A DNA stretch of 64,000 nt from an uncultured Alphaproteobacteria bacterium. Its GTDB lineage: Bacteria; Pseudomonadota; Alphaproteobacteria; RF32; CAG-239. Positions 18,459 through 63,794 of this stretch are shown here, piece after piece; positions within the stretch are counted from its first letter, which is position 1, and each line of letters opens with the position of its first letter. The stretch is taken from NCBI GenBank assembly GCA_934276635.1, contig CAKQTH010000002.1, positions 11,822 through 75,821 on the forward strand, written 5' to 3'. Below the pieces are notes generated by a model. That model had not been told where the DNA came from, searched no databases, and worked only from the letters and a program-made list of their open reading frames with translations. Both the position numbers and the translations under genes were made by a program.

Positions 18459-18489
18459 TTGACAACACCTCACCGGGGGGGGGTAGAAT
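18459..18489 (+). promoter_or_regulatory. sigma-70-like promoter with a G9 homopolymer in the -35/-10 spacer (candidate phase-variable promoter)
   Basis: TTGACA (18459-18464), a 19-nt spacer that contains GGGGGGGGG (18475-18483), then TAGAAT (18484-18489). This lies 95 nt upstream of the autotransporter ATG. Confidence 0.55.
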
Positions 18490-18584
18490 ATATGTGTAAA
18501 TGGAATCGTAAAGGCCGTGTAACACATTGTTTTTATGCATTTATGATTCGGGGATAATTTTTAAGAGATTACAGGGGACGGAAT

Positions 18585-21500
18585 ATGAAAAATTATGTTT
18601 TCAAGAGAATTCTGTTAACAACAAGCGTGGCTTGCGGCGCGCTTTTTGTCTCGGGGAATGTAAATGCGGCAACCGTGTCTACATGGGAAGAATTTAAGGC
18701 GGCGATTGCGGCCGGAGAAAGCGAGATTGTGCTTGCGGACAACCTGACGGCGACCGATATAATCACAATTACAAGTCCGCTCAGCATCAAGAGCGCGGAC
18801 GGACAGGTTTATAAAATTTCTGCGGCTGACGGGCTGAAATTTTCCGACTCCTTTATCAAATATACCGGCACATCGTCTTCTCCGCTGCTTAATTTGAGCA
18901 ATGTGCAGATTTCAAACATTTACCGTTTTAACAACACCAACGCCGGAACATACGCTGGCGGCGTAATCAACAACTCGGGCAAAATCGGCACGATTGACGG
19001 TGTGTTTTCTGACAACAAAATGGAATATAATCTAGACAGCGGTGGGCATACCAGAGTGTACGGCGGTATAATCTATAACAGTTCGTCCGGCTCCATAGAT
19101 AAAATCGGCGGCACATTTTCCAGCAACGACTTTGTCAGCCGCGTTCCGTGGAGCAGCCTCAACTCCTGGGGCGGCATAATCAGCAACCAGGGCACTATCA
19201 ACGAAATTGATGCAAACTTTATCGGAAACACTATGTCGACAGAAGATTATAGAGATAACTATACTTATGGCGGAATAATACAATCGAGCGGAAAAATCGG
19301 CACAATCAGAGGATTGTTCAAAGACAATATATTAAAATATTACAACTACACCAGCTACTGGAATGAGCAAAGGGGTAGTTTGATGTATATACAAAACGGG
19401 GTAGACAATATCTATGCCGACTTTATAAACAACTCCCTATATAATGAAGCCAATGACACTCTGACACGTGTCCACGCATCTTTAAACTTAGGTTTTATAA
19501 CCTTGCAATATAACAATATAAACGATTTTGTATCGTCTTTTGCTGAAAATAAGATGAATGTAACACTTACCGGAAACGGTAACGGATTTGTCAGAATAAA
19601 TGATATATACCAGACAACCGCAAAAAATATTGTGTTTGATATGCATAACAACAAAGTTGATGCAACAGCTGAAGGTTATATATATTATGAAAGCTTCAAC
19701 ATGGAAGGGGATTCAACTGATGTTACATTTAATAATTCCAAATTCTATGAAAATGAAACAACATTAGAATCCACCACAAAAAACATTTATGCCTCCGGCT
19801 TAATGACTGTATCCAGCAGCGGTGCGAAAGCAACATTTAACAATGTGCTGTTTAAGGACAATATTACTACCGCAGTCGGGAATTCGACCATCAGCGGCGG
19901 CGGTATCAAAAACAACGGTACATTAAACATTAACACCGCGCTTTTTGAAAACAACCTGATTAATTCCACAAATGCGGCAAACGGCGGAGCAATTTCCAAC
20001 GCAAAAACCGCCTCGATTATTGCTGATTTTGTCGGCAACAAAGCTTTCGCCGGAACGGATACTTCCACCGACACCAACGCCGTGGCCAGAGGTGGCGCGG
20101 TTTACAACTCCGCAGCCGGAACAATCGAAAAGCTCAGCGGCGTATTCTCTGACAACAAAGCGTATGCGATCGGCAAAACAAAATCTTCCGCTCTCGGCGG
20201 CGCGGTCTATAACAAAGGAAACCTCACTCTTTCTAATATCGTGATGGCCGACAACAACGCGGTTGCCGAAACCGGAACAGCCGACGAAACAAACAAGCCG
20301 GAAGCGCTCGGCGGTGCGGTTTATAACCTCGGAGATTTGCATATCAACGGTTCTGACGGCTTTGAAAACATTATCTCCGGCAACAAGGCGACTACCAAAA
20401 TCGGCGAGACCGAAAACACCGTGCAAAACGGAATATACACCGCCGCGGCCGACAAGAATGTATTTGTTAATATGACGACCGATTCAAAACTGTTCGTCTA
20501 TGACACCATCGACGGCGTTGAGGCCGGATACAACCTAAAATTTGACGGCGATGAAACCGGCCAGGCGTTTATTTATAACAATATTATCAACGCCAACATC
20601 TTTTTGGACAATATGTATCTGAACATTGCTCAAGAAGAATATCTCGACAATGCGAAAACTCTGACGCTTTCTTCCGGTCATTTGGATTTGATGAACGGAA
20701 AAGTCGGAACAATCCGCCCGGCAATGACTTTGACCGGCAATGTTCTGCTCTCCGTTGATGTCGATTTGTCCAACAAAATTATGGACCGCTTTGCCGATGG
20801 CGCAACCGCTACGGCCGGAAAACTCACAATCTCGCAGATAAATCTTCTTTCTGACGCTCTGCAAGATGTTGTGTATGTTCCGTTTGCCGAAGACAGCTGG
20901 CGCGACAAAGTTGATACCACCGTTACCGACGCCGTATATTCGAGCATCTATAAATATACGGTTTCGTACGAGGCTGACGGCGACGAAAACGGCGAAAATC
21001 GCGGCTCGTTCAAATTTGTCCGCACTTCGGTCATAAACCCGAATATTGAGGCGTCTTCAATCGCGGGAATCATCAACGGGGCAATGACGCAAGGCTTGAT
21101 TTATCAAAAAGCCCTGCAAGGCACCGATAACGCCGCACTCATCGGCCTCGGTATGTCTTCCGGCGATGAAAAGAGCGAATACGCTATCGGACAAATGTGG
21201 ATAAGACCGTTCTTGAGCAAAGAAAATGTTGATCTCAAATATTCCAACACCGTCCGTGCACAGGCTCGTGGTATGGTCTTTGGTATCGACAGCAACGACA
21301 TTCATCTTGACAACGGCGGAGAGCTCACAATCAGCCTCTATGGCGCAGTCGTCGACTCCGACCAAAAGTTTGAGCAAAACAAAGTTAAACAAACCGGAGG
21401 CAACCTCGGCGGATCTATCGTGGCAACATACGGCGACTTCTTTGCCGCAGTCACCGCCAATATCGGTATGAGCGATAATGAAGTCAACACCGTCACCGGC

Positions 21501-21974
21501 AAAGACAACTTTAATATCTATCTCGGCGGTGCGGCGTTCAAAACCGGCTACAATATCAGCCTTAACGAAAGCAAAGACCTGGTTATTCAGCCGAACTTCC
21601 TGACTTCGTACACCGCGCTGAAAACCGAAAATTATCACACTTCGGCCGGCGTTCATGTAAAGTCTGATATGCTGCATGTGGTAGAAATCGCTCCGGGCTT
21701 TAAGCTCATCAAAGAATACGACCACGGATTTAAGGCATATGCTACCATGACGGCGGTTTGGAATGTTATAATCGACGGCGAGGTTCGCGCAAACAATGTG
21801 GTTCTGCCTGACTTGAGCGTCAAACCATACATTGAATACGGATTCGGTTTTGAAAAAGACTGGAGCCAAGAAGAATGGAACCCGGTTGACCTCACAACAT
21901 TCGCGCAAATCGTCAGACGCGACGGCGGACGCGAAGGTTGGGCAGGAACCGCGGGTATCAAATGGAGCTTCTGA
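18585..21974 (+). CDS. autotransporter adhesin with Pmp-type (GGA[IV]xN / FxxN) passenger repeats and a C-terminal beta-barrel
   Basis: Signal peptide MKNYVFKRILLTTSVACGALFVSGNVNA. Repeated GGAIYN/GGAVYN...F.GN motifs. The C-terminus ends in GIKWSF (aromatic terminal residue). 1129 aa. Confidence 0.8.
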   Translation: MKNYVFKRILLTTSVACGALFVSGNVNAATVSTWEEFKAAIAAGESEIVLADNLTATDIITITSPLSIKSADGQVYKISAADGLKFSDSFIKYTGTSSSPLLNLSNVQISNIYRFNNTNAGTYAGGVINNSGKIGTIDGVFSDNKMEYNLDSGGHTRVYGGIIYNSSSGSIDKIGGTFSSNDFVSRVPWSSLNSWGGIISNQGTINEIDANFIGNTMSTEDYRDNYTYGGIIQSSGKIGTIRGLFKDNILKYYNYTSYWNEQRGSLMYIQNGVDNIYADFINNSLYNEANDTLTRVHASLNLGFITLQYNNINDFVSSFAENKMNVTLTGNGNGFVRINDIYQTTAKNIVFDMHNNKVDATAEGYIYYESFNMEGDSTDVTFNNSKFYENETTLESTTKNIYASGLMTVSSSGAKATFNNVLFKDNITTAVGNSTISGGGIKNNGTLNINTALFENNLINSTNAANGGAISNAKTASIIADFVGNKAFAGTDTSTDTNAVARGGAVYNSAAGTIEKLSGVFSDNKAYAIGKTKSSALGGAVYNKGNLTLSNIVMADNNAVAETGTADETNKPEALGGAVYNLGDLHINGSDGFENIISGNKATTKIGETENTVQNGIYTAAADKNVFVNMTTDSKLFVYDTIDGVEAGYNLKFDGDETGQAFIYNNIINANIFLDNMYLNIAQEEYLDNAKTLTLSSGHLDLMNGKVGTIRPAMTLTGNVLLSVDVDLSNKIMDRFADGATATAGKLTISQINLLSDALQDVVYVPFAEDSWRDKVDTTVTDAVYSSIYKYTVSYEADGDENGENRGSFKFVRTSVINPNIEASSIAGIINGAMTQGLIYQKALQGTDNAALIGLGMSSGDEKSEYAIGQMWIRPFLSKENVDLKYSNTVRAQARGMVFGIDSNDIHLDNGGELTISLYGAVVDSDQKFEQNKVKQTGGNLGGSIVATYGDFFAAVTANIGMSDNEVNTVTGKDNFNIYLGGAAFKTGYNISLNESKDLVIQPNFLTSYTALKTENYHTSAGVHVKSDMLHVVEIAPGFKLIKEYDHGFKAYATMTAVWNVIIDGEVRANNVVLPDLSVKPYIEYGFGFEKDWSQEEWNPVDLTTFAQIVRRDGGREGWAGTAGIKWSF

Positions 21975-22017
21975 TAAGCTGTTAGTCCGGTGTAATTTTC
22001 CCCTGACACCGACAAAA

Positions 22018-22050
22018 AAGAGGTTGTTTTTCAGGCAACCTCTTTTCTTT
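22018..22050. terminator. bidirectional rho-independent terminator
   Basis: AAGAGGTTG-9 nt loop-CAACCTCTT, flanked by an A-run and a T-run, between convergent genes. Confidence 0.6.
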
Positions 22051-22067
22051 TTTCTGCTTTTTTTATT

Positions 22068-22550
22068 TTACACTACAAAAATTTTTGCAACGATATATGT
22101 GCAAACAGCGGCAAACAATCCAGCAAACACATCGTCGAGCATAACTCCGAGCGCGGAATGAAGCTTGCTGTCGGCCCATTTTACAGGTCCCATTTTTTTG
22201 ATATCAAACAAACGGAAAAAAGCAAATCCGACAAGGTATATATACCAATGCGACAAATTTGCGTACAAAAGCGGAGAAACCAGCACAAAGCTTAATGTCT
22301 GCCCCACAACTTCATCAACCACAACCCAGCCGGGGTCCTCTACCTTTTGATGTGTGACAACATAGTGCGTTGCCGGCCAGCCCAATACAAAAGCCGCCGC
22401 CGCAACCGCCAAAATTCCCCACAAGCCGAAAAAATACGCCGCCGCCGCGACCAACGGCAAGGTCATAAATGATCCCGCCGTCCCCGGTGCAAACGGAGCA
22501 AACCCGACCCCGAAATATGAGGCAATCGAATATGCAAGATTATGTTTCAT
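22068..22550 (-). CDS. pgpA: phosphatidylglycerophosphatase A
   Basis: 160 aa membrane protein with a PgpA-like sequence (FGVGFAPFAPGTAGS...). Confidence 0.7.
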   Translation of the reverse strand: MKHNLAYSIASYFGVGFAPFAPGTAGSFMTLPLVAAAAYFFGLWGILAVAAAAFVLGWPATHYVVTHQKVEDPGWVVVDEVVGQTLSFVLVSPLLYANLSHWYIYLVGFAFFRLFDIKKMGPVKWADSKLHSALGVMLDDVFAGLFAAVCTYIVAKIFVV

Positions 22551-22562
22551 CGCACTTATCCT

Positions 22563-25175: not shown

Positions 25176-25341
25176 AGTTTTCTCCATTATAAAAATTATT
25201 CGATGATAATATCGGGCGATTTTGCGCAAAATTCAAGCGTTTTATCAAAATATCAAATCAATATTTGTTACCATATATTTTAATTGCAATCTGCAAAATT
25301 TTTGCTAGAATTTACAGCAGGATAAATTATTGGAGTTTTTT

Positions 25342-25635
25342 ATGATGAAAAAAACATATTTGGCACTTTTTGCTGCGGCGTTTTTGCTCGGCGGCTGCTC
25401 TGAGCGAAACGAATTTTTACTGACTTGCAACACATTGGGTTTCAACGATTTACGCGATTTGACTTTTCAGGAATGCCGCTGCGTTGCCGACGAACTTGAG
25501 CAAAATCTTGCGGTTGAAGACTTTTCTGAGCTTAATAAGATATTGAAAAATCGCGAGCAGCCACAGATAAATTCAACTTCCGACATTGTTCTGCGCGATG
25601 CCGGACGCAAGTGCGTAAATCCCCTGAAACAATAG
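25342..25635 (+). CDS. small lipoprotein (4 Cys in the mature part)
   Basis: MMKKTYLALFAAAFLLGGCSE lipobox. A GGAG ribosome-binding site lies 5 nt upstream. Confidence 0.55.
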   Translation: MMKKTYLALFAAAFLLGGCSERNEFLLTCNTLGFNDLRDLTFQECRCVADELEQNLAVEDFSELNKILKNREQPQINSTSDIVLRDAGRKCVNPLKQ

Positions 25636-25725
25636 AAAAATCAACTGCGGCATAATTAATATTAGACAAATATTTTTTTTGTGCTAATATTATATCAGTA
25701 TTGTTTATCCGCAAAGGAAAAAATT

Positions 25726-27456: not shown

Positions 27457-30400
27457 CTACCATTCCTGAGTATATTTCAACTTAGGATTGTTCAAACGCT
27501 TTATATAATTAGGGTTACTTCTTTCTACTCCTTGTTCTACTGTTCTAAGGCTTGAATATTGATTATATTCTGTATCAACCATATTTTCATTGAAATAACT
27601 ATTACTGTTGTTTGTCAAACCATTTCTATCGAAATAACAATATACAGTCGCATAACCTTCTATACTCCATTTATCAACCGGGAACAAATTCCAATATATT
27701 TTGTTATCTCCTTGTCCAAGCTGCGGTGCTTCTGATCCACCCATTCCCGGTGTTTTGCTTGAATCAAACAAGTGGCTCCACAACACTGACGGATAGATAA
27801 ATCCCATATAGGTATTCCAACCTACAAATTGTCCGCCTGTTGAATATTCATTTCCTTTGTTATTATTTTCTCCTACATTTCCTCCCAAATTAAGCTTAAT
27901 TGCCGACTTCAACCATGTATTTTGTTGGAATATTCTCGGAATTGTTATAGAACCTCCTCCTGCCGGAATCTCTTTTATATCACCTTTTATCAATCCTTTA
28001 CTGGTCATATCATAAATCTTTTTATCTGGAGATTTGGCACTAGTGTTTCCATACATTGGTGTCGATTCGTTCAAATATAATCTATTACCTGCATCTGCAC
28101 TGCTATCTTCTACCAGAGTACCGATTTGAGCCATACGCCAGCCGGCAGGAGTCAAAGTAATAACTTTTGCATACCCCGGAGGACACTGCGGCGCCGGGAC
28201 AACTCCTAAAAATGCTGATGCAAATATAGCATTTACTTCCTTCACTGAATTGTTCATACTAGTTATGTCTTTTTCTTTAGGTGTCGTTCCCTCACCATAG
28301 CTGTTATCCGTAACATAAATACCTTTATTAATAAAGTCAGGCAAAATATCGCTCAAACGAGCTCCACCGCGGGAGGTCAGCTTGATATCGTGCATAACCG
28401 AAGTATATGCCGGATCTACCATATAGTGGTCATAACGCACACCATGACCTATTGTTTTGTCTTTATATACTTCATTTGGATTTCTCTCATAAGATACTCC
28501 GTTTTTTACATCCTGGACATTATCTACAACAAACCTGTCCGCTTTAACATACCCCGTCCCCGCATCAGCAGCATTTTTACCGGTTGAATCAGCAGCATTT
28601 TTACCGGTTGAAGAGGCTATCTTGTCTAAATCATCAAATTGCTGTACATCTATTGAACCTCTGCGGATATATACACCAGCTTTGATAGTATTATTTGCTC
28701 TATCTTGTACATTAAAATTATCATCACCTTTTGAAACATCATCTGAGCCGCTTACCGCCAACACATTATTTTGCAAGACAACTTTTCCGCCATATGCATT
28801 ATCACCAGACTTATGATGAACAGTTTGAATATGTATATATTGATCACCCTGCAATTGAATATTATTCGATGCATTAAATTGCAAGAAACTACCTTTATCA
28901 TATTTAGGAGTGACATCTATGCCATTATTTGCTTCTACACTATCTCTAGACAATGTTATTGTTCCATCTACTCCCTTTGTTGAATCTGACGGGGAAACAT
29001 TCATTACAATATCTCCACCCTTTACCGTTGTATTAACATTACCAGCAGTAACTTTGTTTTCTATGTTAGCATCAGAAACAGTCATAGCTATACCGCCGAC
29101 ATTCTTAACCGCTTTGCCATCGTCTTTATAAATTCGACCTATATCCAATTGAGAGAGTGGTTTTTTTACTGTTGATCCTGACGATGATTGTCCTAACGTC
29201 CTCATTTGAATAGTACCTTGTAGCAAGTCGCCTACACTTTCTTGGTCATTGCCATAACCTTTTATTTGTCTGGCTTCTTCAAGCTTTCCGCTGGACGCCA
29301 CATTTATATATGCATACTGCGCCGGTAATTCTCCCGCTTTACTTTCACCTTTTCTTTTATACCCGATTTTAACACCGTTTTTATCTACATCTAAATTCCA
29401 GGTTTCTTGGCTATTGTCTAGATCGTTTCTGCCTGCGCGCAATGATTTTGTATCAAAATTATCAGATTTCAAATATCCTGTTTCCAGCTGTGTCGCAATT
29501 GTTCTACCTGATAAAATATTTGCATTTTTTGCATTATTTGCGGCAACTATATATGATGTATAAGCAGCATTGCCATCACTATCTTTTTTTCCTATACGAG
29601 CATATTTGTCTTTAAATCCGGACCCATCGTATGTGGCTTTATTATCTTGTGTACCGACATAATTTTTTGGATTCATTGCCACAAGTTGATTTTTAATAGT
29701 CGTTCCATCTTCTTTGATACTAACCTTAGCATCGTCACTATTGCCAAAGAAACGAACAGCTCTTGCATCACCAGATTCTTCTGCGCCTATATTTGCAGAA
29801 ATTAAATTATTAGCATATGTCAAAGTATTACTATTTACGGCAAACTTATCCTTACTATCGCCGGTTCTGCTGAATGTCATGCCACTGTTATCAACAACCA
29901 GTCCGGCTCCGGCAACCGCTGTAGTATTTCCTTCTCCTGTAGTAGAGGTATACGGATTGTATTTAAATTCTGTTTCATCGACACTCAGTTTTTTCCGAGC
30001 GGCTTCCAATGATCCGCCTAACCAAGTATTTTTAACAGCGCCTTTACTGCTGACATACAAAGCATAACCTTCTGCATCGGCAGTTATATCATCATCTTGA
30101 TTATCTTTTTTATTTCCATCTCTTCCTTCTTGATGGCCAATCAAAAGTTGGCGAACGCCTTCGATGCTTTTTGCGCCATCATCACCCCACATATACAAGT
30201 TTGTCTGCATGGTGTTGTTTTCAACATCATCTTCAACGCGATATAAAAACTTGCTGGTATCAATCTGTGCCGACGCCCCGACCGCATTCTGCGATGCCAC
30301 AACAACCGAGTTATCAGAAATACCATTTAGCTCTATATCTGCAGGATCTGTCTGCCATGTACCCTGAACGCCGAGCACTTCACCGTTGTCAACAATTGCT

Positions 30401-30864
30401 CCGTTCCCGCCAATCATTGTCGCAATTCTTGATGTGCGTTGCGCCGTAATCTTGTCATCTGTAACATTTGCGCCAACATATCCGGTAATAACAGGGGCTT
30501 TCGGGTTATCCGTTTCTTTTACGACATAAGAAAATTTATATTCTTCCCCAAGCGGGCCATAAACTTTTTCCCCTTCAACAGCTCCTTCAGGCAAATATTT
30601 TGCCAATTTGTCCGCCGTTAAAGTGTATTTGCCATCATGTCCATCGCCTTTCAAGGTATCATAATTATCGCTGATATAGGCATCAAGCGCGGAGCTGAGC
30701 ATTCTCATATGGCTCGCCGCGTTGATATCTTGCAGCTCGGTCATTCTTTCCGCTGATTTTTTATAAACAACAGGAGTAACCAGCGAAATTAACCCCAACA
30801 TTGCTATCGCCTCAATCATCAAGCTACCAGCCTGATTTATCTTTTTCATATCAAAGTTTTTCAT
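27457..30864 (-). CDS. giant (1135 aa) protein with a type IV prepilin-type N-terminal cleavage/methylation signal; modular pilin-like adhesin candidate
   Basis: N-terminus MKNFDMKKINQAG|SLMIEAIAMLGLISLVTPVVY: a basic leader, Gly at -1, Glu at +5, a hydrophobic stretch of about 20 aa, then an amphipathic helix, as in pilin alpha-1. The rest is G/N/D/K/T-rich predicted beta-rich sequence containing a perfect 8-aa tandem repeat. Confidence 0.6.
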   Translation of the reverse strand: MKNFDMKKINQAGSLMIEAIAMLGLISLVTPVVYKKSAERMTELQDINAASHMRMLSSALDAYISDNYDTLKGDGHDGKYTLTADKLAKYLPEGAVEGEKVYGPLGEEYKFSYVVKETDNPKAPVITGYVGANVTDDKITAQRTSRIATMIGGNGAIVDNGEVLGVQGTWQTDPADIELNGISDNSVVVASQNAVGASAQIDTSKFLYRVEDDVENNTMQTNLYMWGDDGAKSIEGVRQLLIGHQEGRDGNKKDNQDDDITADAEGYALYVSSKGAVKNTWLGGSLEAARKKLSVDETEFKYNPYTSTTGEGNTTAVAGAGLVVDNSGMTFSRTGDSKDKFAVNSNTLTYANNLISANIGAEESGDARAVRFFGNSDDAKVSIKEDGTTIKNQLVAMNPKNYVGTQDNKATYDGSGFKDKYARIGKKDSDGNAAYTSYIVAANNAKNANILSGRTIATQLETGYLKSDNFDTKSLRAGRNDLDNSQETWNLDVDKNGVKIGYKRKGESKAGELPAQYAYINVASSGKLEEARQIKGYGNDQESVGDLLQGTIQMRTLGQSSSGSTVKKPLSQLDIGRIYKDDGKAVKNVGGIAMTVSDANIENKVTAGNVNTTVKGGDIVMNVSPSDSTKGVDGTITLSRDSVEANNGIDVTPKYDKGSFLQFNASNNIQLQGDQYIHIQTVHHKSGDNAYGGKVVLQNNVLAVSGSDDVSKGDDNFNVQDRANNTIKAGVYIRRGSIDVQQFDDLDKIASSTGKNAADSTGKNAADAGTGYVKADRFVVDNVQDVKNGVSYERNPNEVYKDKTIGHGVRYDHYMVDPAYTSVMHDIKLTSRGGARLSDILPDFINKGIYVTDNSYGEGTTPKEKDITSMNNSVKEVNAIFASAFLGVVPAPQCPPGYAKVITLTPAGWRMAQIGTLVEDSSADAGNRLYLNESTPMYGNTSAKSPDKKIYDMTSKGLIKGDIKEIPAGGGSITIPRIFQQNTWLKSAIKLNLGGNVGENNNKGNEYSTGGQFVGWNTYMGFIYPSVLWSHLFDSSKTPGMGGSEAPQLGQGDNKIYWNLFPVDKWSIEGYATVYCYFDRNGLTNNSNSYFNENMVDTEYNQYSSLRTVEQGVERSNPNYIKRLNNPKLKYTQEW
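28564..28611 (-). repeat. perfect 24-bp tandem duplication inside the giant pilin-like CDS (encodes STGKNAAD x2)
   Basis: atcagcagcatttttaccggttga occurs twice back to back, at 28564-28587 and 28588-28611. Confidence 0.9.
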
Positions 30865-30875
30865 CGCTTTTCTCC

Positions 30876-31745
30876 TTATCTTACAACACTCATAACAATT
30901 AAACAGTTACTGGAATCTTTGTGGCAGTTGCTATCAGACGCGAACAATCCATTTTGGGAAATCGCCTTCGGAATCGGCACAAGTTTGTCTTGAAACCCGC
31001 TGATAAAATACTCAAAATTGTTAACCATCAACGAGTTACCTGCTGAATCTTTATATAATTTTTCATCAATCACTTGATCTTTATATTTGCCGGCAGGAAC
31101 CACATACCCCATCTTTACGCCCTGAGTCGAAGTTTTTTTGATGGCTTTTATCAAATCTTCATTCGGAGCCTCTAAGGTAGAGCCTTCAGCTCCTCTGGCT
31201 CTCCAACGCACAGGAATCGGCATTGTGGTCACAACATACAGCCTTGCATAGTTTTTGTTCGGAATAGGGTTCCCGTTTTCATCAACTTTGATTGAACCGT
31301 CTTCATTTTTCTGAGTTGCTCCTTCAGAACCCTGACAAAGCTTTATATCCGCGGTCAATTCAAGCCGATTAAAAACCGTAGGGTCATGCATATCGCGGCT
31401 TTTGATGCAATATAGCTTTGAAACTTCGCCGACCTCAGGCCTAAATCCTTCCAAAACGGTTTCAGATAAAATTCCACCTTCTGGTTTACCTGTATCTGGA
31501 TTCTCTTTAGGATTAAGTTCCGCCTTTGTTATCGTCCCCAAATACATTGTCCCGTCTTGCCCATTTTTCGCCAGCTTGTATTGCTTCTTAGTATATTTTG
31601 TGACTGCCTCATGCTGAATCAAAAGCTTTGAAATGACAGCCTGCGCCTGCGGCGTTACATACAAATCGCGCGAATCGGATCGCACGCTCAAATTATATGA
31701 AAACAGCGCCACAACAAATGTTGCCAATATTACCCAGATATACAT
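30876..31745 (-). CDS. membrane-anchored 289-aa protein co-operonic with the giant pilin-like gene (possible minor pilin or assembly partner without a canonical leader)
   Basis: The ATG has a GGGGGAAGAG ribosome-binding site and in-frame stops upstream. N-terminal hydrophobic helix MYIWVILATFVVALFSY followed by a helical segment. The stop lies 9 nt before the GGAGA ribosome-binding site and ATG of the downstream gene. Confidence 0.5.
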   Translation of the reverse strand: MYIWVILATFVVALFSYNLSVRSDSRDLYVTPQAQAVISKLLIQHEAVTKYTKKQYKLAKNGQDGTMYLGTITKAELNPKENPDTGKPEGGILSETVLEGFRPEVGEVSKLYCIKSRDMHDPTVFNRLELTADIKLCQGSEGATQKNEDGSIKVDENGNPIPNKNYARLYVVTTMPIPVRWRARGAEGSTLEAPNEDLIKAIKKTSTQGVKMGYVVPAGKYKDQVIDEKLYKDSAGNSLMVNNFEYFISGFQDKLVPIPKAISQNGLFASDSNCHKDSSNCLIVMSVVR

Positions 31746-34354: not shown

Positions 34355-34383
34355 GCAGATATCTTACCAAAATTTTCAAACAA

Positions 34384-34414
34384 AAACCACCGAGGGGAGT
34401 CGGTGGTTTTTTTG
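34384..34414 (+). terminator. rho-independent terminator after rlmH
   Basis: ACCACCG-aggggag-TCGGTGGT followed by a T7 run. Confidence 0.7.
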
Positions 34415-34448
34415 TGTTTTTCTCCGGTGAACGAAAAGAGAAAAACAG

Positions 34449-34944
34449 CTAGAAAGAAATGATAATGGTGTTATCTTTTTCTTCATGAACATCAGCGACG
34501 GCTTCTGCCAGGGCATAAAATGTTCGGTGTCCGGTCGGCATGGTTGTCATTCCGATGGTCGATGAGCCGGAGTCTGAAGTTGAGCCAGACCCGTTGCCGG
34601 TTGAAGAACCCGTACAGGAATTTGAACCTGTATCAGGTTTTGTCTCTTCCCCGCCGCTTGAACTCTGGTTGCCGTTGTTTGAATCAGAACCGCCGTTGTC
34701 AGGGGTCTTACCTAAAGTTGTTCCAGCTTTGCCAGTCCTCAGAAAAAGGATTGAATTTAGCATTTTTAAGAAAAGTTGATAAATCGAGTTCTACATTTTC
34801 TCCGGTATCTTCACCAAAATAAGAAACAGAGTTAATCTTATTGGAGTCTTACCAAGATGATGTCCCTATCAATATAGCCGCGTTCGCGTTGACGCAGATG
34901 GCAAGAGCGGTGGAAAGGGAGAGGAAAAAGGGTTTACTTTTCAT
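34449..34944 (-). pseudogene. fragmented small secreted/lipoprotein-like gene: a signal-peptide ORF (34849-34944), then a stop, an 85-nt gap and a +1-frame Gly/Ser-rich ORF (34449-34763)
   Basis: [22 protein letters not shown] is a signal peptide ending in a stop after 31 codons. The downstream 104-aa ORF is low-complexity G/S/T/N-rich and ends in ...IIISF. A G9 tract lies 39 nt upstream of the ATG. Confidence 0.3.
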
Positions 34945-34982
34945 AATACATATTCCTTTATAAAAATATTTAAAAACATCTA

Positions 34983-34991
34983 CCCCCCCCC
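34983..34991 (-). repeat. G9 homopolymer (C9 on the plus strand) followed by TAGA, upstream of the fragmented lipoprotein-like ORF
   Basis: Read directly from the sequence: the minus strand reads ...ctctcGGGGGGGGGtagatgttttt... Confidence 0.9.
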
Positions 34992-35164
34992 GAGAGTTTT
35001 CTCGGAGAGGGGTACATATTTTGCCGAACACATCACTGTTTCGACATTGCCTTATATTATGACTTTCTCGCAAAAGTCAACGATAAGCCACGCAAACCGC
35101 AGGTTTTTACAAAAAAGAGGCGGGTTTTCACCTGCCTCTGAAAACATATTTACGGATATGTCCT

Positions 35165-48496: not shown

Positions 48497-48692
48497 ATCC
48501 CGATATCTCAGATGTCGGGGTTTATAAGGAGGAGCCGTCCGGCCGTATTATTCGATTATACTTCGAACCGCTGTGTCAAGGTGGGCATCATATAACAAGA
48601 CCACGATCTTGTCAGAGACAATTCCCTAAATAATAAATGTTGGCTCGGAAGACTTGCGGAAACACGAACCGGACAGCCTATCCTCCATATAT
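48497..48692 (-). ncRNA. ssrS: 6S RNA (SsrS) candidate with intrinsic terminator, immediately downstream of zapA
   Basis: Conserved zapA-ssrS synteny. Minus-strand terminal arms GGAGGAUAGGCUGUCCGG ... CCGGACGGCUCCUCC can form a closing stem. Internal segments CCGCAAGUCUUCCGAGCCAACAUUUAUUAU and CACCUUGACAC resemble E. coli 6S (CGCAAG...CCUGAGCCGAUAUUUCAUA; CACCUUGAAC). A terminator hairpin CCCGA...UCGGG followed by a U6 run is at 48497-48527. Confidence 0.55.
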
Positions 48693-57341: not shown

Positions 57342-57986
57342 TCAACCTATTAACGAATTTATTTCTGCGCGAACCAGCTCCAGACCGATACCTTTTTCGG
57401 AGCTGGTAGCCAGAATTTTCGGATACGCCGCCGCGTGTTTTGAAAGCTCAAGCTTTGTTTTTTGCATAACCTCATCAAGTGCTTTTTTGCTGATTTTATC
57501 AATTTTTGTAAGCACAATCTGATATATTACCGCGGCCTTGTCCAACATCTCCATAATTTGCTCATCAACTTTTTTCAGCCCGTGGCGTGAATCAATCAGC
57601 AGAAAAACTCTTTTAAGGCTTGCTCTGCCCTGAAGATAGGCCATAATCAGCTTTTGCCACTGTTTTACAACACTGTCCGGAGCCTGTGCAAAACCGTATC
57701 CCGGAAGATCCACCAGATAAATCTGTTTGTTCAGCAAAAAATAGTTCAGTTGCTGAGTTCTCCCCGGAGTATTCGAAGTTTTTGCCAGTTTTTTCTGATA
57801 GAATATCGCATTGATAATGCTTGATTTTCCGACATTTGAGCGGCCGGCAAAGGCCACTTCGGCAAATTCATCGCCCGGCAGTTGCTCAAGTTTTGCTACC
57901 CCGAGCACAAACTCACAGTTTTTGCGAAAAAGAGCATTTGCTTCATCTATCTGCACCGGCAAAAATTCTTCGGTTTCAAACTCCAT
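57342..57986 (-). CDS. engB: ribosome biogenesis GTP-binding protein YihA/EngB
   Basis: G1 motif GRSNVGKSS and DLPGYGFA. Part of the conserved yidC-engB arrangement. Confidence 0.85.
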   Translation of the reverse strand: MEFETEEFLPVQIDEANALFRKNCEFVLGVAKLEQLPGDEFAEVAFAGRSNVGKSSIINAIFYQKKLAKTSNTPGRTQQLNYFLLNKQIYLVDLPGYGFAQAPDSVVKQWQKLIMAYLQGRASLKRVFLLIDSRHGLKKVDEQIMEMLDKAAVIYQIVLTKIDKISKKALDEVMQKTKLELSKHAAAYPKILATSSEKGIGLELVRAEINSLIG

Positions 57987-59692
57987 TAATCAACTCCGTT
58001 TTTATACATAATCGCCTTTTGCTGGATAATCCCGAGCAGATTGCTCAGCGTCCAATAAATCACCAATCCGGACGCAAAATGCCCGAGCATAAAGGTAAAG
58101 ATTATCGGCATCAAAACAAACATTCTGGCCTGATCTTTGTTTGTCGGAGCAGGATTCAGCTTTTGTTGAATAAACATCGTGATACCCATAAAAATCGGCC
58201 ATAATCCGATGTTGAAAAACGACGGAATATAAATATGCAACAACTCTGAAAGAACCAACGGATCCGGCGCGGACAAGTCTTTTATCCAGCCGATAAACGG
58301 AGCGTGGCGGATTTCAATCGAAATATTGAGCACCTTATACAGCGAAAAGAACACCGGAATTTGAATAAACATCGGCAGACAGCCGGAAGCCGGATTAATC
58401 TTTTCTTTTTTATAAAGAGCCATTGTTTCCTGTTGCAGGCGGATTTTGTCGTCTTTGTATCTTTCTTGCAGAGCCTGAATTTTCGGCTGAAACTTGCGCA
58501 TTTTCGACATACTTTCAAACGACTTGTTCGCCACCGGAAACATACACAACCTGAGCAACGCCGCAAACAGCAAAATCGCCCAACCCATATTGCCGATAAG
58601 GTGATACAAAAAGTCAAGAATATAGAAAAACGGCTTGGTCAGAAAATAATACCAACCGAAATCAACCGCCAGATCAAACTTTTCAATGCCGTTGTCTTCA
58701 ACATATTTATCCAAAAGTTTGATTTCTTTGGCTCCGGCAAACAGCGAAAATGTGTTCATTGCCGACGAACCGGCCGCAATTTTTTGCCCGTTTCCGCGAT
58801 AATCGGCCTGATATACATTTTCCGAAACTCTGCGGAAAGATGCGGTACTCTTCAAATTTCTGTCCGCAATCAGCGCGCTGAACCAATAGTGGTCGCTAAA
58901 GCCTGCCCAGCTTCTTTTCCCTTCATAAACCTTGCTTTTGTCGCCTTCTTTTAAGTCGGCATATTTAATTTCTTCAAGCTTGTCTTCAAAAACGCCGATC
59001 ATACCTTCATGCACAACTCTGGCTGTTGAAACAATGTCTTTGTTGTTTTTTGTAATCAGCGCGTACGGATAAAGCTCAATCTCCCGTTCCGTATTATTTT
59101 CAACCATTTGCTCAATGCGGAACATATAATTTTCATCTAAATAAACCTTGTTGACAAACCGCAGTCCTTGTTCGTTATTCCACTCAAAAGCAATCGGCGT
59201 TTGCGGAGTCAGTTTGTCGCCTTTTGCCGTCCATACGGAATTTTCATCAGGAGTTTTGATGTTTTTGTCGGCAGAAAGCCAGCCGAATTGCGCATAGTAC
59301 GGATTTTTTGTTCCGGACGGCGCAAACAGCTCGACCAACGGACTGTTTTCTTCAATTGTCTGCTTATATTTTGCCAGATACAAATTGTCAAAACGCATAC
59401 CTTTAAGACGAACGGAACCGGTCAAATCGGCATTTTCTATTGCGATACGGCTGTCATTAATCAAAATTTCATCAGTATTTTTCGGCTCAACGGAAGCAAC
59501 CTGTGCTGTTTTTTTGTCTTCAGCAGATGTTGCTTCCTGCATTGCCTCATTATTTTCCCCATTCGGCGCCTCTACTGTCGGAACCGTCGATGATTGCTCC
59601 GGCAGGCTGTTGCCGAAATATCTTCCGGCAAAAAAGATTACCATCGCGGACAAAAAAACCGCAATATACAAATTTTTCAATTCACTTTTCAT
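57986..59692 (-). CDS. yidC: membrane protein insertase YidC
   Basis: 568 aa with a large periplasmic domain and the conserved C-terminal five-TM core (PLQQKMNPAPTNKDQARMF-type motif). Confidence 0.9.
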   Translation of the reverse strand: MKSELKNLYIAVFLSAMVIFFAGRYFGNSLPEQSSTVPTVEAPNGENNEAMQEATSAEDKKTAQVASVEPKNTDEILINDSRIAIENADLTGSVRLKGMRFDNLYLAKYKQTIEENSPLVELFAPSGTKNPYYAQFGWLSADKNIKTPDENSVWTAKGDKLTPQTPIAFEWNNEQGLRFVNKVYLDENYMFRIEQMVENNTEREIELYPYALITKNNKDIVSTARVVHEGMIGVFEDKLEEIKYADLKEGDKSKVYEGKRSWAGFSDHYWFSALIADRNLKSTASFRRVSENVYQADYRGNGQKIAAGSSAMNTFSLFAGAKEIKLLDKYVEDNGIEKFDLAVDFGWYYFLTKPFFYILDFLYHLIGNMGWAILLFAALLRLCMFPVANKSFESMSKMRKFQPKIQALQERYKDDKIRLQQETMALYKKEKINPASGCLPMFIQIPVFFSLYKVLNISIEIRHAPFIGWIKDLSAPDPLVLSELLHIYIPSFFNIGLWPIFMGITMFIQQKLNPAPTNKDQARMFVLMPIIFTFMLGHFASGLVIYWTLSNLLGIIQQKAIMYKNGVD

Positions 59693-59746
59693 TTTTCAAA
59701 CTCCGTTTTTTCTTTTTTAATCGAAAAAATAAACTTGTGCAAGCAT

Positions 59747-59995
59747 TTATGCAGATTTTTTCCGTTCTGTTTTCGGTGGTACCGGATCATATCCGGAGCC
59801 TCCCCACGGGTGGCACCGTAAAAGTCTTTTTGTCCCGAGATATATTCCCTTAAAAATTCCGTGAATTTCAATCGCCTCAAGCATATATTGCGAACAAGTC
59901 GGGCGATATCGGCAGACTCCGCCAAACATCGGCGATATAAACTTTTGATATCCTCTGATAAGGATAAAAAGAAAGGTTTTACAAGGGTTTTGCAT
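59747..59995 (-). CDS. yidD: membrane protein insertion efficiency factor YidD
   Basis: [26 protein letters not shown] motif. The start was set at the internal ATG (MQNPCK...), which overlaps the 3' end of rnpA by 17 nt. Confidence 0.75.
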
Positions 59996-60344
59996 TATTT
60001 TGAAACTCTTTTTTCGCAGCCTTGAGCCCGCGGATAAGATTTTGTTTAAGCGTGTCAAACGGGCAATACGATGTGTTATATCTTCCGACCAAAACATATT
60101 CAAAATTGTCCATTGCGTATTTTGAAAAAACTTCTGCCACGGCGGCGCGCATTCTGCGGCGGGCTTTGTTTCTGATATGAGCCTTGCCGATTTTTTTGCT
60201 TGTGGTATAGCCGACTTTCGGAGCAGAATTTTCCGCGCATAAACTTTGAGCCGCCTGCAGGATAACGGTAGGCATTACCGCTGTAAATCCTTTGGCGACT
60301 CTAACAAAATCTTTTCTTTTTTTAAGAATCTCGATTTTAGTCAT
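59979..60344 (-). CDS. rnpA: ribonuclease P protein component
   Basis: 121 aa basic protein ([17 protein letters not shown]), between rpmH and yidD. Confidence 0.85.
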
Positions 60345-60357
60345 GAAATTTCAGCAA

Positions 60358-60492
60358 TTATGCAGAAATGTTTTTACGACCTCTGGCACGACGAGCAGAC
60401 AAAACTTTGCGTCCGCCTGCGGTAGCCATACGAGCGCGGAATCCGTGACGACGAGCTCTTACCAGTTTAGAAGGTTGATATGTGCGTTTCAT
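60358..60492 (-). CDS. rpmH: 50S ribosomal protein L34
   Basis: Hand-translated from the minus strand: [44 protein letters not shown]. It is absent from the ORF track because it is under 60 aa. Confidence 0.9.
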
Positions 60493-60648
60493 TTGTTTTC
60501 TCCGGTTAATTATTATTATTTAAAACCCCGAATATCACACAGGGTTCTCGGTTATTACACTGAGCTTATATAAGTTTTTTTTCGCTTCGTCAACTGTTTT
60601 TTACGAAAAAAAGCTCCCTGATTTTTCAGGGAGCAGAAACTTGCGGTT

Positions 60649-61380
60649 TTATTTGCGGTCGCCGAACAGGCGCAGCAAATATAAGAACAGGTTTACAAAA
60701 TCAAGATACAATTCCAGAGCGCCTGAAATTGCGGCTTTGTGAGCGAGTTCTTCATCGCCGGCAACATACATCTGGCGAATTTTTTGCGTATCATAAGCGG
60801 TCAGTCCGACAAAAATCGCAACACCGATAACCGAAATTGCAAAGTACACTGCCGAGCCGCCCCAAAAGATGTTTACGATGCTGGCAATAATCAGTCCCCA
60901 CAAGCCCATATAAAGAAATGTGCCCATTCCGGTCAAATCGCGTTTGGTTGTATATCCGTATATGCTGAGCGAGCCGAACATTGCGGCAGAAATCAAGAAC
61001 ACGCGGGTGATGCTTGCGCCGGTGTACAAAAGCATAGCCGGAGCGATAGATGCGCCCATCAAAACCGAAAACAGCCAGAAGCATGTCTGGACGGCAAAAA
61101 TCGAGCCGCTGCGCAGATATCTTCCGAAAACAAAGACCATAACCAGCGGAGAAAGCAGCACAATCCAGCCCAAAGGCGAAAGCGATGCGCCATATTCTGA
61201 AATATTAAAAAACGCTGCGATTAAGCCGGTTGAAATCAAAGTATAAACCGTAAGAGCAGAAGCAATCAATCCGCCGGCCATATAGTTATAAACTTTGAGC
61301 ATATATTTGCGCAATCCCTCATCAATCACGGGTTTTGCATCAGCAGTAACAATTTGTTCTTTTAACATTTTATTCTCCAT
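60649..61380 (-). CDS. Bax inhibitor-1/YccA family membrane protein
   Basis: Seven TMs and a typical BI-1 sequence (KYMLKVYNYMAGGLIASAL...). The ORF-track start at 61428 is a TTG; the ATG at 61380 (MENKM) or 61368 is more likely the real start. Confidence 0.7.
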   Translation of the reverse strand: MENKMLKEQIVTADAKPVIDEGLRKYMLKVYNYMAGGLIASALTVYTLISTGLIAAFFNISEYGASLSPLGWIVLLSPLVMVFVFGRYLRSGSIFAVQTCFWLFSVLMGASIAPAMLLYTGASITRVFLISAAMFGSLSIYGYTTKRDLTGMGTFLYMGLWGLIIASIVNIFWGGSAVYFAISVIGVAIFVGLTAYDTQKIRQMYVAGDEELAHKAAISGALELYLDFVNLFLYLLRLFGDRK

Positions 61381-61733
61381 AAAAATAGTACCTGTAAAAA
61401 ATATAGGGTATTTTTTTTGCGAAATCAAGTCGTATTTAGGATTTGCATAAGATTTTGCGCAGTGCGGACGCTTGCAAACAAAAATCGACCGGAGGGGAAG
61501 ACGCAGGAATTGTAATTATATGTGTATTAGGAGAACGTAATTATTTTTCCCTGCGCCCGCCTCTCCGGCCGACTATGTTTTTTTAATGTTTTATTTTAGC
61601 GTTTTTCCTTTCTTTTTTGTCTTTTCAAACAATAGGATTTTCACCCTCATACCTTTCGGAAGTTCCACCCGGCAGTCGGATATCTCACCCCTCCCCGCCG
61701 GGCGGAACTTCTTTTCTAAGCATCATATTTTAT

Positions 61734-63794
61734 TTAAAATGATTGTCCAAATGTTTTCTTCCCTTTACGATATCTTTGCAGGCCATTCTTCATAAAGTAT
61801 ATCGACCTGATTTTGCATGTTGTTCCGCTGCTATTTTCGTTTACATCAGAAACTTGCCATTTTCCGTTATAGTAATACAGTTTATATCTTGTGTATTCAT
61901 CACCTTTGTTTGTTCCAACGCCCCAATAACAGTTAGTCGTCGTAAACTGGTCTCCTCCGGCTTTCTTCAGTGCTTCATTAATTGACGTAATATTTTCCGC
62001 AATTTTTTCCAGCATCTCTTTGGTCGGCAGAGCATGTAATGCAGTCGCGTTACAATCAGCTATCCTTTGGACAATTGAACATGCCGAATTGTTAATCTTT
62101 GCCTTATAACAGTTCCTATCATAATCTGTTTCTCCGGCACCATTTATATAATTTCCCTTGTTGCCGTTGCATTCCGGATCGTCTTTCAGCGACACCGCGT
62201 GGTCATAATAGCCGAAGCTTCCGCCATTTGTATAAGGACCGTTCAGCTTGACCCCGGCCATATTACCTCCCAAATCAACCTTGGATTGATTTGACGGCCA
62301 ATAGAAAATGAGGCCATTGTCATCAGTATGCGGGGAGTTCGTGCTGGTTCCATACATATAGTACCAAGTAGAAGATGAACCTTTACCCTTTTTTATACAC
62401 CTTACATATCCATAATCACCAGCTGTCTCAATATACCATAGGCCTCTGCTTGTGGTAATCTCCTTTACTCCTCCAATATTTGCTTCATGATAACTGCTAT
62501 TTATTTCTTTGCACTTTTTCGGACGATAGCAAACTGCTCCGTTTTTGTTTTCATCAACACAAATTGCGGCTTTGTGGTTGGGATTTCCGTCATATGAAGA
62601 ATTCTTACAATCGCCTTCCGCCACATAATATTCAGTCGGACAAGTTGCTTTCTCTTTATAACAAGTTTTTGAGGTATCGTTGGTGGCGGTTGTTGTGTCA
62701 CAGGTTTTTCCGCTCGGGCACGAACCAAGTATATATCCGGTCGGACATACCGCTTTTTCCTTCTTATAACAGGTTAATGTTCCCGTATCTTCCGTAACTT
62801 TTACACATACATTTTCCGCATCTCCGCAACTGCTGCTGAAAGTATAATTTGCATTATATCCGCTACATGTCTTAGAACATTTTACACTATATGTTGTATT
62901 TGTATCCGTTTCACAAAGCTTCGGCCTGCCTTTTATATTAAAACATGTATCTTTCGTCCAGCCGTTCAGACATTTATAATCATCATACAAATCTCCGCAC
63001 TGGTTGCCGTCAACCGCAAAATTTCCGGTAAGATTATTCGAAGCATATTTATATCTGGCCGGGCATTTACATGTTCTGCAGGTTAGCTCTTTTTGCTGTG
63101 AATGCGTATATGCTTTATCTTCAAGCAATGGTGCTTTACATTCACCTGCCTGATAACTGTTGCCGGTGTCACAGGTTACTGTTGTATACAGTGTTTCTCC
63201 CGCATTATCGCCGTATTTATATGTGCATGCTCCGGTATAAGTAAATCCCGGTGTTTCCTTTTTGTATTTATATGTGCTGTCGCAATCACAATCTTTATAC
63301 AAAACCTTATTTGCATTATTTGCATTTGCCCCATACAGCATCGTGCAGATTCCGCCGTCTGCAACCGGAGTTTGGCCAGCACTGCATACACTTGAATTTG
63401 TCTCTCCGTCTTCTCGTGTTATTTTGGATAAAGTATATTTATAATCACTTTTGCAAGTTGCGCGGTAGAGCTTTTTGCCGTCTATTTTTGTGCATTCTTC
63501 AATATCATACGCTGCCTCGTTTGTCGGTCTTTCTGTCAGCATATAATAGTTCGGATTACAGGTACATTTTACAAATTTCTCACCTTTTGAGACGCAGGTA
63601 TCGTATACGATTTCTTTAACTCCATCGCACGATTTTTCTTTGTATCCCAAACTATTGCAATCTTTTGTTTCGATGCTCGGTTTGTCGCACCCGCCGACGA
63701 TAAAACATACATCAGCGTTACTCGGCTCTACCCCCCCCCACCATGAGGCTACGAAAAGGGTTAGAAACCACACCGTCAGATTTGATTTTCTCAT
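61734..63794 (-). CDS. large secreted Cys/Tyr-rich protein (686 aa) with an in-frame G9 tract in its signal peptide; the C-terminal region resembles DUF1566 (Lcl C-terminal-like)
   Basis: Signal peptide MRKSNLTVWFLTLFVASWWGGVEPSNA|D with an AAAGGGAG ribosome-binding site. At least 50 Cys, many in CxC, CDCD or CKC motifs. The C-terminal LHALPTKEML...YWGVG...YYNGKWQV...CKIRSI is reminiscent of DUF1566. Confidence 0.65.
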   Translation of the reverse strand: MRKSNLTVWFLTLFVASWWGGVEPSNADVCFIVGGCDKPSIETKDCNSLGYKEKSCDGVKEIVYDTCVSKGEKFVKCTCNPNYYMLTERPTNEAAYDIEECTKIDGKKLYRATCKSDYKYTLSKITREDGETNSSVCSAGQTPVADGGICTMLYGANANNANKVLYKDCDCDSTYKYKKETPGFTYTGACTYKYGDNAGETLYTTVTCDTGNSYQAGECKAPLLEDKAYTHSQQKELTCRTCKCPARYKYASNNLTGNFAVDGNQCGDLYDDYKCLNGWTKDTCFNIKGRPKLCETDTNTTYSVKCSKTCSGYNANYTFSSSCGDAENVCVKVTEDTGTLTCYKKEKAVCPTGYILGSCPSGKTCDTTTATNDTSKTCYKEKATCPTEYYVAEGDCKNSSYDGNPNHKAAICVDENKNGAVCYRPKKCKEINSSYHEANIGGVKEITTSRGLWYIETAGDYGYVRCIKKGKGSSSTWYYMYGTSTNSPHTDDNGLIFYWPSNQSKVDLGGNMAGVKLNGPYTNGGSFGYYDHAVSLKDDPECNGNKGNYINGAGETDYDRNCYKAKINNSACSIVQRIADCNATALHALPTKEMLEKIAENITSINEALKKAGGDQFTTTNCYWGVGTNKGDEYTRYKLYYYNGKWQVSDVNENSSGTTCKIRSIYFMKNGLQRYRKGKKTFGQSF
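63731..63739 (-). repeat. G9 homopolymer (C9 on the plus strand) inside codons 18-21 of the Cys-rich protein's signal peptide, followed by TAGA
   Basis: The coding strand reads TGG TGG GGG GGG GTA GAG (W W G G V E). Confidence 0.9.

Follow-up and report, generated by a model that had tools for sequence, protein, structure and literature searches.

Poly-G Tracts Followed by TAGA in an Uncultured Gut Alphaproteobacterium: Probable Contingency Loci of Surface-Protein Genes

The 64,000-nucleotide stretch analysed here (the window), from an uncultured alphaproteobacterium of the human gut, contains three runs of nine G, each with TAGA directly at its 3' side (3/3): site 1 at 18475-18483 on the plus strand, site 2 at 34983-34991 and site 3 at 63731-63739, both on the minus strand. 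The reading preferred here, with a probability of about 65%, is that each of the three G9 runs is a contingency tract of the simple-sequence kind, independent of the other two, and that the effect of slippage at each of them is set by the position of the tract. Strand slippage during replication would alter the number of Gs, with a consequence that depends on location: site 1 lies in the spacer of a promoter, site 3 in the codons of a signal peptide, and site 2 in the predicted leader of a truncated open reading frame (ORF). From their sequence, two of the three tracts, together with several in relatives, appear to be poly-G contingency switches of the standard type, acting on genes for surface proteins.

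This reading relies on three properties. A change of one nucleotide would alter the promoter spacer at site 1, and it shifts the reading frame at site 3, where the frames were verified; tract length differs between assemblies at the same locus at site 1 and in the site-3 family, and not at site 2; and the products are surface or secreted proteins: an autotransporter bearing Pmp repeats at site 1, a Cys-rich protein that has a signal peptide at site 3 and, in relatives, a type IVb pilin. The first-pass annotation of the window had proposed contingency loci for surface proteins, and in this it was right: site 1 occurs as G9 and G10, with contigs that break at the tract, and the site-3 family as G7, G8 and G9, with ON and OFF frames. 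The comparison of tract lengths across strains that it recommended bears it out at these two places, while site 2 is G9 in 7 of 7 assemblies. Similarly, its statement that every tract lies at the start of a gene for a surface or secreted protein is correct for sites 1 and 3, and fails at site 2, where a signal-peptide-like stub of 31 codons is followed by stops.

Occurrence of the G9 Tracts

Contingency loci are recognised by over-represented homopolymers of about 7 nt or longer, and in the window three G9 runs occur while runs of 5-8 nt are nearly absent. Counting G or C runs, there are 103 of 4 nt, 2 of 5 nt, 1 of 6 nt and 3 of 9 nt, a gap that makes the G9 runs clear outliers; the earlier claim that they are the only G/C runs of at least 8 nt in 64 kb holds even at a threshold of 7 nt (n = 3, every one G9). 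The window contains 6 matches to G8 against 0.48 expected, a number reached in none of 100 dinucleotide shuffles. As for the 13-mer G9-TAGA, three exact copies compare with 0.32 matches expected from shuffles when up to two mismatches are allowed, so that the chance origin of this thrice-repeated word is unlikely, as first supposed. TAGA is a rare word in the DNA of the window, with P = 0.0017 following a non-G first base, and the probability that any single 4-mer is common to three flanks is 9.4e-5 per side. In all three cases, the Gs are on the sense strand of the neighbouring gene.

Alignment of 200 bp around the three sites showed that similarity is confined to the 13-mer: 5' of the tracts nothing is conserved, and 3' of them conservation stops after 4 nt. 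The tracts are internal to their contigs and recur in independent assemblies from several studies and assemblers; hence, they are not sequencing artefacts.

Regarding the comparative material, UvrB places the window in the uncultured Alphaproteobacteria, the best GTDB representatives being metagenome-assembled genomes from the gut with only ~80% identity; at their syntenic uvrB-rlmH locus, no G tract of 8 nt or longer was found. The species itself was found neither among the GTDB representatives nor in the metagenome collection scanned. Many assemblies of it from the human gut (Hadza and other cohorts) were, however, retrieved by exact-protein look-ups, and these span all three sites. Look-ups with the site-3 protein of the window and with its Bax1-I neighbour gave no match, and the assemblies of the site-3 locus were reached through an exact match to the neighbouring RNase P protein gene. 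In addition, the contigs of the site-3 protein homologues supplied ~100 kb from a sister species. A literature search for the motif string found unrelated papers only. L and P numbers below denote the contigs or assemblies and the proteins compared.

Site 3: a Tract within a Signal Peptide

The gene at site 3 (61734-63794, minus strand) encodes a Cys-rich secreted protein of 686 residues with a signal peptide (MRKSNLTVWFLTLFVASWWGGVEPSNA, followed by DV). The protein has no match in Pfam or NCBIfam, and its homologues, only 13 among 5.8 billion proteins, form a lineage-restricted multigene family, of which a search in a metagenome collection found no relatives. The G9 tract (63731-63739) spans codons 19-22 of the signal peptide (...ASWWGGVEP...) and is in frame in the window, while TAGA (63727-63730) is part of the codons GTA-GAG (Val-Glu) in this ON state; overall, G9-TAGA occupies nt +56 to +68 of the coding sequence.

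The ON and OFF states of the family were determined by translating every member from the ATG of its signal peptide. The frame is open in the window and in L105, L108 and L110, with G9 on the ...SWWGGVEP allele; in L239, L240 and L241, with G8 on the ...SMGGVEP allele; and in L118, where G9 is followed by TAAAGCC. In contrast with these ON forms, L115 and L116 have G7 and end as ...SMGG at the TAG of TAGA, and L117, L242 and L243 have G9 on the SM allele and end as ...SMGGGRAE at a TAA located four codons later. In other words, a tract shorter by one G converts the TAG of TAGA into a stop, and the other OFF frame is closed by the TAA four codons on. Slippage at site 3 would then leave one length class in frame, with the two other classes stopping translation within 0 to 4 codons.

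Tract length also varies by locus: members adjacent to rpoBC have G7 or G9, those adjacent to enolase G7 or G9, and those adjacent to yceG G8 or G9 on different alleles. Sample ERZ26858495 contains three paralogues on contigs of similar coverage, of which the rpoBC-adjacent copy is G7 and OFF, the yceG-adjacent copy G8 and ON, and the enolase-adjacent copy G9 and OFF; on its tract lengths and frames, this pattern is that of classical independent switching in a multigene family. The OFF alleles are present in the protein database with spurious upstream starts (P0007, P0009) or as truncated calls beginning with MCFIVGGC (P0010, P0011), and such miscalled N-termini are as expected for OFF alleles.

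Rearrangements accompany this variation. P0004 is a chimera of two family members, whose first ~210 residues match P0001 and whose remainder differs; furthermore, the strains differ upstream of the site-3 gene, with a breakpoint 27 nt 5' of the ATG (~63821) that joins it to nrdD/nrdG in L105 versus yceG in the window and L108. Both the chimera and the upstream breakpoints suggest recombination among paralogues with near-identical 5' ends.

A conserved mRNA hairpin between the G tract and the pyrimidines upstream of it was considered for site 3 and found unconvincing, the consensus fold having only one compensatory pair; the upstream pyrimidine run exists because of the hydrophobic codons of the signal peptide.

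Site 1: a Tract within a Promoter Spacer

Poly-G tracts between the -35 and -10 hexamers, with an optimum at a 17-nt spacer, are documented for tp0126 of Treponema pallidum and for porA of Neisseria meningitidis. Site 1 has the same arrangement, its sequence reading in order aaaaaatcg-TTGACA-acacctcacc-GGGGGGGGG-TAGAAT. The -35 hexamer TTGACA (18459-18464, plus strand) is a perfect consensus preceded by an A-rich stretch and is located 19 nt 5' of TAGAAT; the G9 tract (18475-18483) makes up the last nine bases of this 19-nt spacer, after ten other nucleotides; and the -10 hexamer TAGAAT (18484-18489) has TAGA as its first four bases. The two hexamers thus flank the tract, and the 17-nt spacing lies within ±2 units of it, being reached with G7. 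The promoter scanner used accepts spacers of 16-18 nt only, and for this reason it missed the promoter of site 1.

The gene that follows (18585-21974, plus strand) encodes a secreted, autotransporter-like protein of 1129 residues with Pmp repeats, a signal peptide and a C-terminus ending in KWSF. The protein itself has no direct Pfam match, and a search against the GTDB representatives found no relatives; it has 31% identity (E 2e-70) with a protein of 778 residues from the sister-species contig L117, in which Chlam_PMP repeats and the autotransporter beta-domain PF03797 (E 6.6e-19) are recognised. According to the model proposed, tract length would set the transcription of this Pmp-type autotransporter adhesin: G9 produces a 19-nt spacer, for which transcription is predicted to be weak or absent; the spacer would shrink to 18 nt with G8 and to the optimum of 17 nt with G7.

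Four assemblies define the lengths at this site, with G9 in the window, L011 and L012, and G10 in L013. In addition, contig L014 stops on the base preceding the tract and contig L016 stops 5 nt before it, which is what length heterogeneity does to assemblers.

Relatives have promoters of the same layout. The autotransporter-like gene of L117 has its own promoter, TTGACA-N9-G9-TAGACT, and its 5' untranslated region aligns with that of site 1; the type IVb pilin gene of the sister species is preceded by TTGACA-N6-G9-TAGAAT in L115 and by TTGACA-N6-G9-TAAACT in L117. From site 1 and these promoters it follows that, at promoter-type tracts, TAGA is the start of the -10 hexamer. The first-pass annotation had offered a common promoter element as one explanation of the motif, and this is accurate for site 1 and not for the other two: promoter scans and inspection around the tracts of sites 2 and 3 found no -35 box, so that the porA/tp0126 arrangement is missing there, and their -10-like hexamers, TAGATG and TAGAGC, are without the essential final T. 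The idea that all three tracts are promoter elements was rejected for sites 2 and 3, the -35/-10 pair being present at site 1 only.

A metagenome scan with the pattern TTGACA-N5-11-G(9 or more)-TAnnnT matched at least 120 contigs (L119-L238), corresponding to at least 114 distinct loci from sources with a GC content of 25-66%, and among the matches listed none was related to this lineage. The figures that follow refer to the 114 loci among these matches. The most frequent -10 boxes were TATAAT (19), TAGAAT (15), TAAAAT (15) and TATACT (9); the three free positions are far from random, and for this reason the matched loci are taken as real promoters. TAGA opens the -10 box, as TAGAAT or TAGACT, in 18 of the 114 (16%), and the number of Gs differs in four of the eight loci sampled twice. 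Given these loci, the layout TTGACA-poly-G-(-10) is widespread and TAGAAT is an ordinary -10 variant. The spacers were distributed as follows: 14 nt, 4 loci; 15 nt, 14; 16 nt, 19; 17 nt, 7; 18 nt, 34; 19 nt, 23; and 20 nt, 13. This distribution has a marked dip at the canonical 17 nt, perhaps because the majority populations sit one or two steps off the optimum, or because 18 nt may be preferred for spacers that contain a G tract.

Site 2: a Leader Hairpin before a Truncated ORF

At site 2, a candidate promoter, TTGACT...TAATAT/TATAAG (35051-35080, minus strand), would produce a leader that contains the G9 tract. G9-TAGA would then be located at about +55 to +65 of this 5' leader, ~35 nt before the ATG and within a hairpin. 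The element is terminator-like and spans 34981-35014 (minus strand) as UACCCCUCUCCGAGA / AAAC / UCUCGGGGGGGGGUA, with a stem of 15 pairs, 9 of them GC, a loop of 4 nt and a U-rich tail, GATGTTTTTA. The G9 tract (34983-34991) is in the 3' arm and pairs with CCCCUCUCC. The predicted leader folds into a 5' hairpin followed by the 15-bp hairpin with G9 as 3' arm. The 51-nt segment with the hairpin has a folding energy of -32.8 kcal/mol (z = -7.4), and because of two G·U pairs the structure is strand-specific as RNA. The nine Gs equal the 9-nt pyrimidine run exactly; regarding tract length, the fold with G9 is the most stable (-45.8 kcal/mol), and that with G8 or G10 is at about -42 kcal/mol, a cost of ~4 kcal/mol. 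An intrinsic terminator is marked, on the transcribed strand, by a stem-loop rich in GC and a U tract behind it, and site 2 is predicted to have both; in Rfam, the element had no match at gathering or at permissive thresholds.

Downstream, the signal-peptide-like ORF (34849-34944, minus strand) has 31 codons, ends in TAA and is probably a decayed or fragmented gene. Its stops are also present in L002 and L010, and the remainder is fragmented in every strain. Over 34355-34944 (minus strand), two in-frame stops occur inside a repeated word, GGTAAGAC (TGG TAA GAC and AGG TAA GAC), and a Ser/Gly/Thr-rich ORF of 104 codons follows in another frame; the pattern is the same in L002 and L010, both diverged. 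Either the gene here has decayed, or the region is read in some unconventional way.

Two upstream ORFs (uORFs) are found in the leader. uORF1 (35033-34980, MCSAKYVPLSEKTLGGG) has 17 codons and stops at the TAG right after G9; with G10, it would continue into the frame of the main ORF. uORF2 (34979-34941, MFLNIFIKEYVL) starts at the ATG of TAGATG, and its TGA overlaps the main ATG at 34944 (ATGA). The overlap of these small ORFs (34941-35033, minus strand) may point to translational coupling.

As for the comparison between strains, site 2 is G9 in 7/7 assemblies (the window, L001, L002, L005, L006, L009 and L010), and for this reason phase variation at this site is unproven. In the diverged strain L002, G9 is followed by AGAGAGATG (AGAG) in place of TAGATG; TAGA is thus dispensable for keeping the tract, since L002 retains G9 without it. 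Inter-strain homology starts just 5' of the -35 box (~35084), and the gene further upstream encodes a BOF-domain protein in L010 versus a histidine kinase in the window. The promoter of L010 is a perfect TTGACT-N17-TATAAT, with a spacer 4 nt longer than the poorer spacing of the window; this difference is predicted to be a second, non-homopolymer source of expression variation at the locus.

The Shared TAGA Flank

TAGA is read differently at each site: as part of the -10 box at site 1; as the base of the stem, which UA closes, and as the stop of uORF1 at site 2; and as Val-Glu codons with an out-of-frame TAG at site 3. In the preferred reading, it is not one cis element. Two properties expected of a shared element are missing. 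Its location relative to the promoter or start codon is not fixed, being in turn the -10 box, the leader and nt 56-68 of a coding sequence, and orthologous sites do not preserve the motif: the flank of relatives has drifted to TAAACT (the L117 pilin promoter) or TAAAGCC (the L118 homologue of site 3), or is lost as AGAG (L002, site 2), with TA-R-A loosely kept. This drift, and a distance to the gene start that varies from site to site, speak against a single recognition element or regulon; of the proposals made at first pass, neither a recognition site common to the three loci nor one shared module that unites them in a regulon is supported by this comparison.

The word GGTAGA is found 23 times in the window against 6-9 expected. 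This enrichment was rejected as evidence for a motif: the sites inspected are mostly coding, in the ordinary Val-Asp/Glu frame (G GTA GAN).

Alternative Explanations

Several facts weigh against the contingency reading. No length variation was seen at site 2 in the 7 assemblies, and the lengths observed at site 1, G9 and G10, are all on the predicted weak or OFF side, with no G7 or G8 ON allele among them. Moreover, in ~170 kb of the lineage, the G runs of 7 nt or longer all precede TA[AG]A in most assemblies (4 independent classes, ~8 loci), and the probability that sites 2 and 3 match the flank of the promoter tract by chance is ~3e-6 for TAGA exactly and, as estimated from flank frequencies, ~1e-4 if the looser TA[AG]A is allowed. 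To explain one motif by three local causes that are unrelated is not parsimonious; the shared flank remains a real statistical oddity, accounted for only in part.

The alternative with most in its favour concerns site 2 only and has a substantial chance of being correct, if somewhat below even: this site would not be a contingency locus at all; it would hold an intrinsic terminator, or a small RNA or attenuator of ~80 nt, whose 3' arm is G9, and the likeness of this G9 to the other tracts would be a coincidence. The constancy of G9 in 7/7 assemblies agrees with this, as do the exact pairing of nine Gs with a 9-nt pyrimidine run in the most stable fold, the U-rich tail 3' of the hairpin, a downstream ORF that is a 31-codon stub, and the upstream promoter and 5' hairpin, which would make a compact two-hairpin RNA. 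The seven assemblies are, however, nearly identical across the locus, so that invariance is weak evidence; a G9 within a terminator stem is itself unusual in a genome that, these tracts apart, avoids G runs of more than 4 nt; AGAUG separates the U tract from the GC stem; and Rfam holds no counterpart. On the predicted fold, site 2 reads as a terminator- or attenuator-like element, or as a small RNA, before a decayed secreted-protein gene. Within the contingency reading, G9 would form the 3' arm of a strong hairpin, terminator-like in its build, in the leader that precedes a vestigial ORF for a signal peptide, and the tract may be a fossil or structurally constrained instead of an active switch.

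The remaining alternatives start from the flank. Unlikely, in our judgement, is that G(n)-TAGA is one composite cis element, recognised by a lineage-specific factor or by an activity that targets slippage or evades repair, with the surface genes co-regulated. In relatives, independent tracts are flanked by TAGA or TAAA too (in the Cys-rich family and at the promoters of a second autotransporter and of the pilin), the Gs are without exception on the sense strand, the word TAGA is rare in the genome, the joint probability of a common flank is very low, and a repressor bound at a -10 box, a leader or an early coding sequence could block transcription each time. On the other hand, the position relative to transcription or translation start is wholly different between sites; the flank is lost or altered in close relatives while the G tract persists; nothing is conserved 5' of the tracts or more than 4 nt 3' of them; the -10 box fully accounts for TAGA at promoters, TAGAAT or TAGACT being present in 16% of the unrelated metagenomic promoters listed; and no candidate factor was identified. 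It is about as improbable that G(n)-TA[G/A]A is a genuine composite switch module in which TAGA is co-selected with each poly-G tract; the cause could be a factor, a DNA structure (a rigid G tract and a flexible TA step) that aids slippage, or a programmed OFF state, either clean or leaky. If so, a complete genome would have a TAGA-type flank on essentially all tracts, whether promoter, leader or coding; the oddity of the flank matters only if it is genome-wide. Very doubtful is a translational selection of TAGA in coding sequences and leaders, by which TAGA, behind a slippery G run, would put the stop TAG into one frame and AGA, a rare Arg codon, into another and so ensure immediate OFF termination, maybe with leaky frameshifting (a 'shifty stop / hungry codon' context, that is, low-level ribosomal frameshifting). 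OFF alleles of site 3 do stop exactly at TAG or at TAA four codons later, and at site 2 the TAG ends the 17-codon uORF1 while uORF2 opens at the overlapping ATG and closes on the main one; but the explanation is inapplicable to promoter tracts, which are not transcribed, the uORFs of site 2 have no support for being translated, uORF1 being without a clear Shine-Dalgarno sequence, there is no evidence of recoding, and the TAAA of L118 keeps a stop and loses the AGA codon. Finally, it is scarcely credible that a cassette, duplicated or mobile, was copied to the three sites, or that these are artefacts of sequencing or assembly. Inter-strain synteny does break ~80-95 bp upstream of sites 2 and 3, yet recombination among paralogues whose 5' ends are nearly identical, as seen in the chimera P0004, accounts better for this, the tracts are contig-internal and reproduced across studies and assemblers, and the sites have no similarity beyond the 13-mer. 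A duplicated segment was rejected on the 200-bp alignments, and with it the copied cassette of the first-pass annotation.

In conclusion, independent contingency tracts remain the preferred reading. It would add a commensal of the human gut, an uncultured alphaproteobacterium, to the bacteria with phase variation through poly-G tracts, which is familiar above all from pathogens such as Neisseria, Campylobacter, Treponema and Chlamydia. The variable surface repertoire of this bacterium is likely to comprise autotransporters of the Pmp type, a type IVb pilin and the lineage-specific family of Cys-rich secreted proteins, in which one paralogue is ON and others are OFF. The metagenome scan suggests, in addition, that promoters of the type TTGACA-Nx-poly-G-(-10) are widespread in uncultured bacteria. 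It should also be noted that gene calls are unreliable at such loci and that OFF alleles enter the databases with spurious N-termini.

Other Features of the Window

Contigs L003, L004 and L007 end exactly 57 nt after rlmH, at a bidirectional terminator palindrome, AAAAACCACCGAGGGGAGTCGGTGGTTTTT (34382-34411 of the window); these ends are probably an assembler break at the inverted repeat and not at a G tract. The 6S (SsrS) RNA gene is found at 48528-48682 (minus strand), with 75.3 bits against a gathering score of 46.4, and it is the sole Rfam family above threshold in the window. A further locus, 27457-31745 (minus strand; 3610-7832 in L002), encodes a domainless protein of 1135 residues and, upstream of it, one of 289; here inter-strain identity is 91% versus 97% nearby, a block of ~800 bp is unalignable, and the products of L002 have 1100 and 302 residues. 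This may be another variable surface locus, one without a G tract.

Comparison with Known Systems

As in porA and in tp0126 and the tpr genes, site 1 has poly-G between the -35 and -10 boxes of a surface-protein gene, and spacer length is predicted to set transcription; the autotransporter and pilin promoters of relatives have exactly this layout. In tprL of T. pallidum, G9 is the commonest form in vivo; activity is seen with G8, and with G10 it is close to background (PMC7864442). Site 1 differs from porA and tp0126 in that it belongs to an alphaproteobacterium that is an uncultured gut commensal, its tract abuts the -10 box directly, and only spacers predicted to be weak (19 and 20 nt) were observed. 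The gene family of site 1 carries Chlamydia-type Pmp repeats, and the pmp genes of Chlamydia have poly-G tracts as well.

As for site 2, it resembles intrinsic terminators and 5'-leader attenuators in its GC-rich stem of 15 bp, its 4-nt loop, its U-rich tail and its location between a promoter and an ORF; it departs from them in having an arm of pure G9, as in contingency tracts, 5 nt between the stem and the U run, and no described RNA family to which it belongs.

Lastly, the site-3 family is comparable to the intragenic poly-G contingency genes that make up the 'phasome' of Campylobacter jejuni and Neisseria (PMC6321876, PMC5084427), with tracts of G7-G9 near the 5' end of surface-protein genes, frameshifts between ON and OFF, and paralogues that would switch independently of one another. 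Unlike the phasome genes, the Cys-rich family is domainless and lineage-restricted, its tract is within the signal peptide, and both OFF frames stop in 0 to 4 codons.

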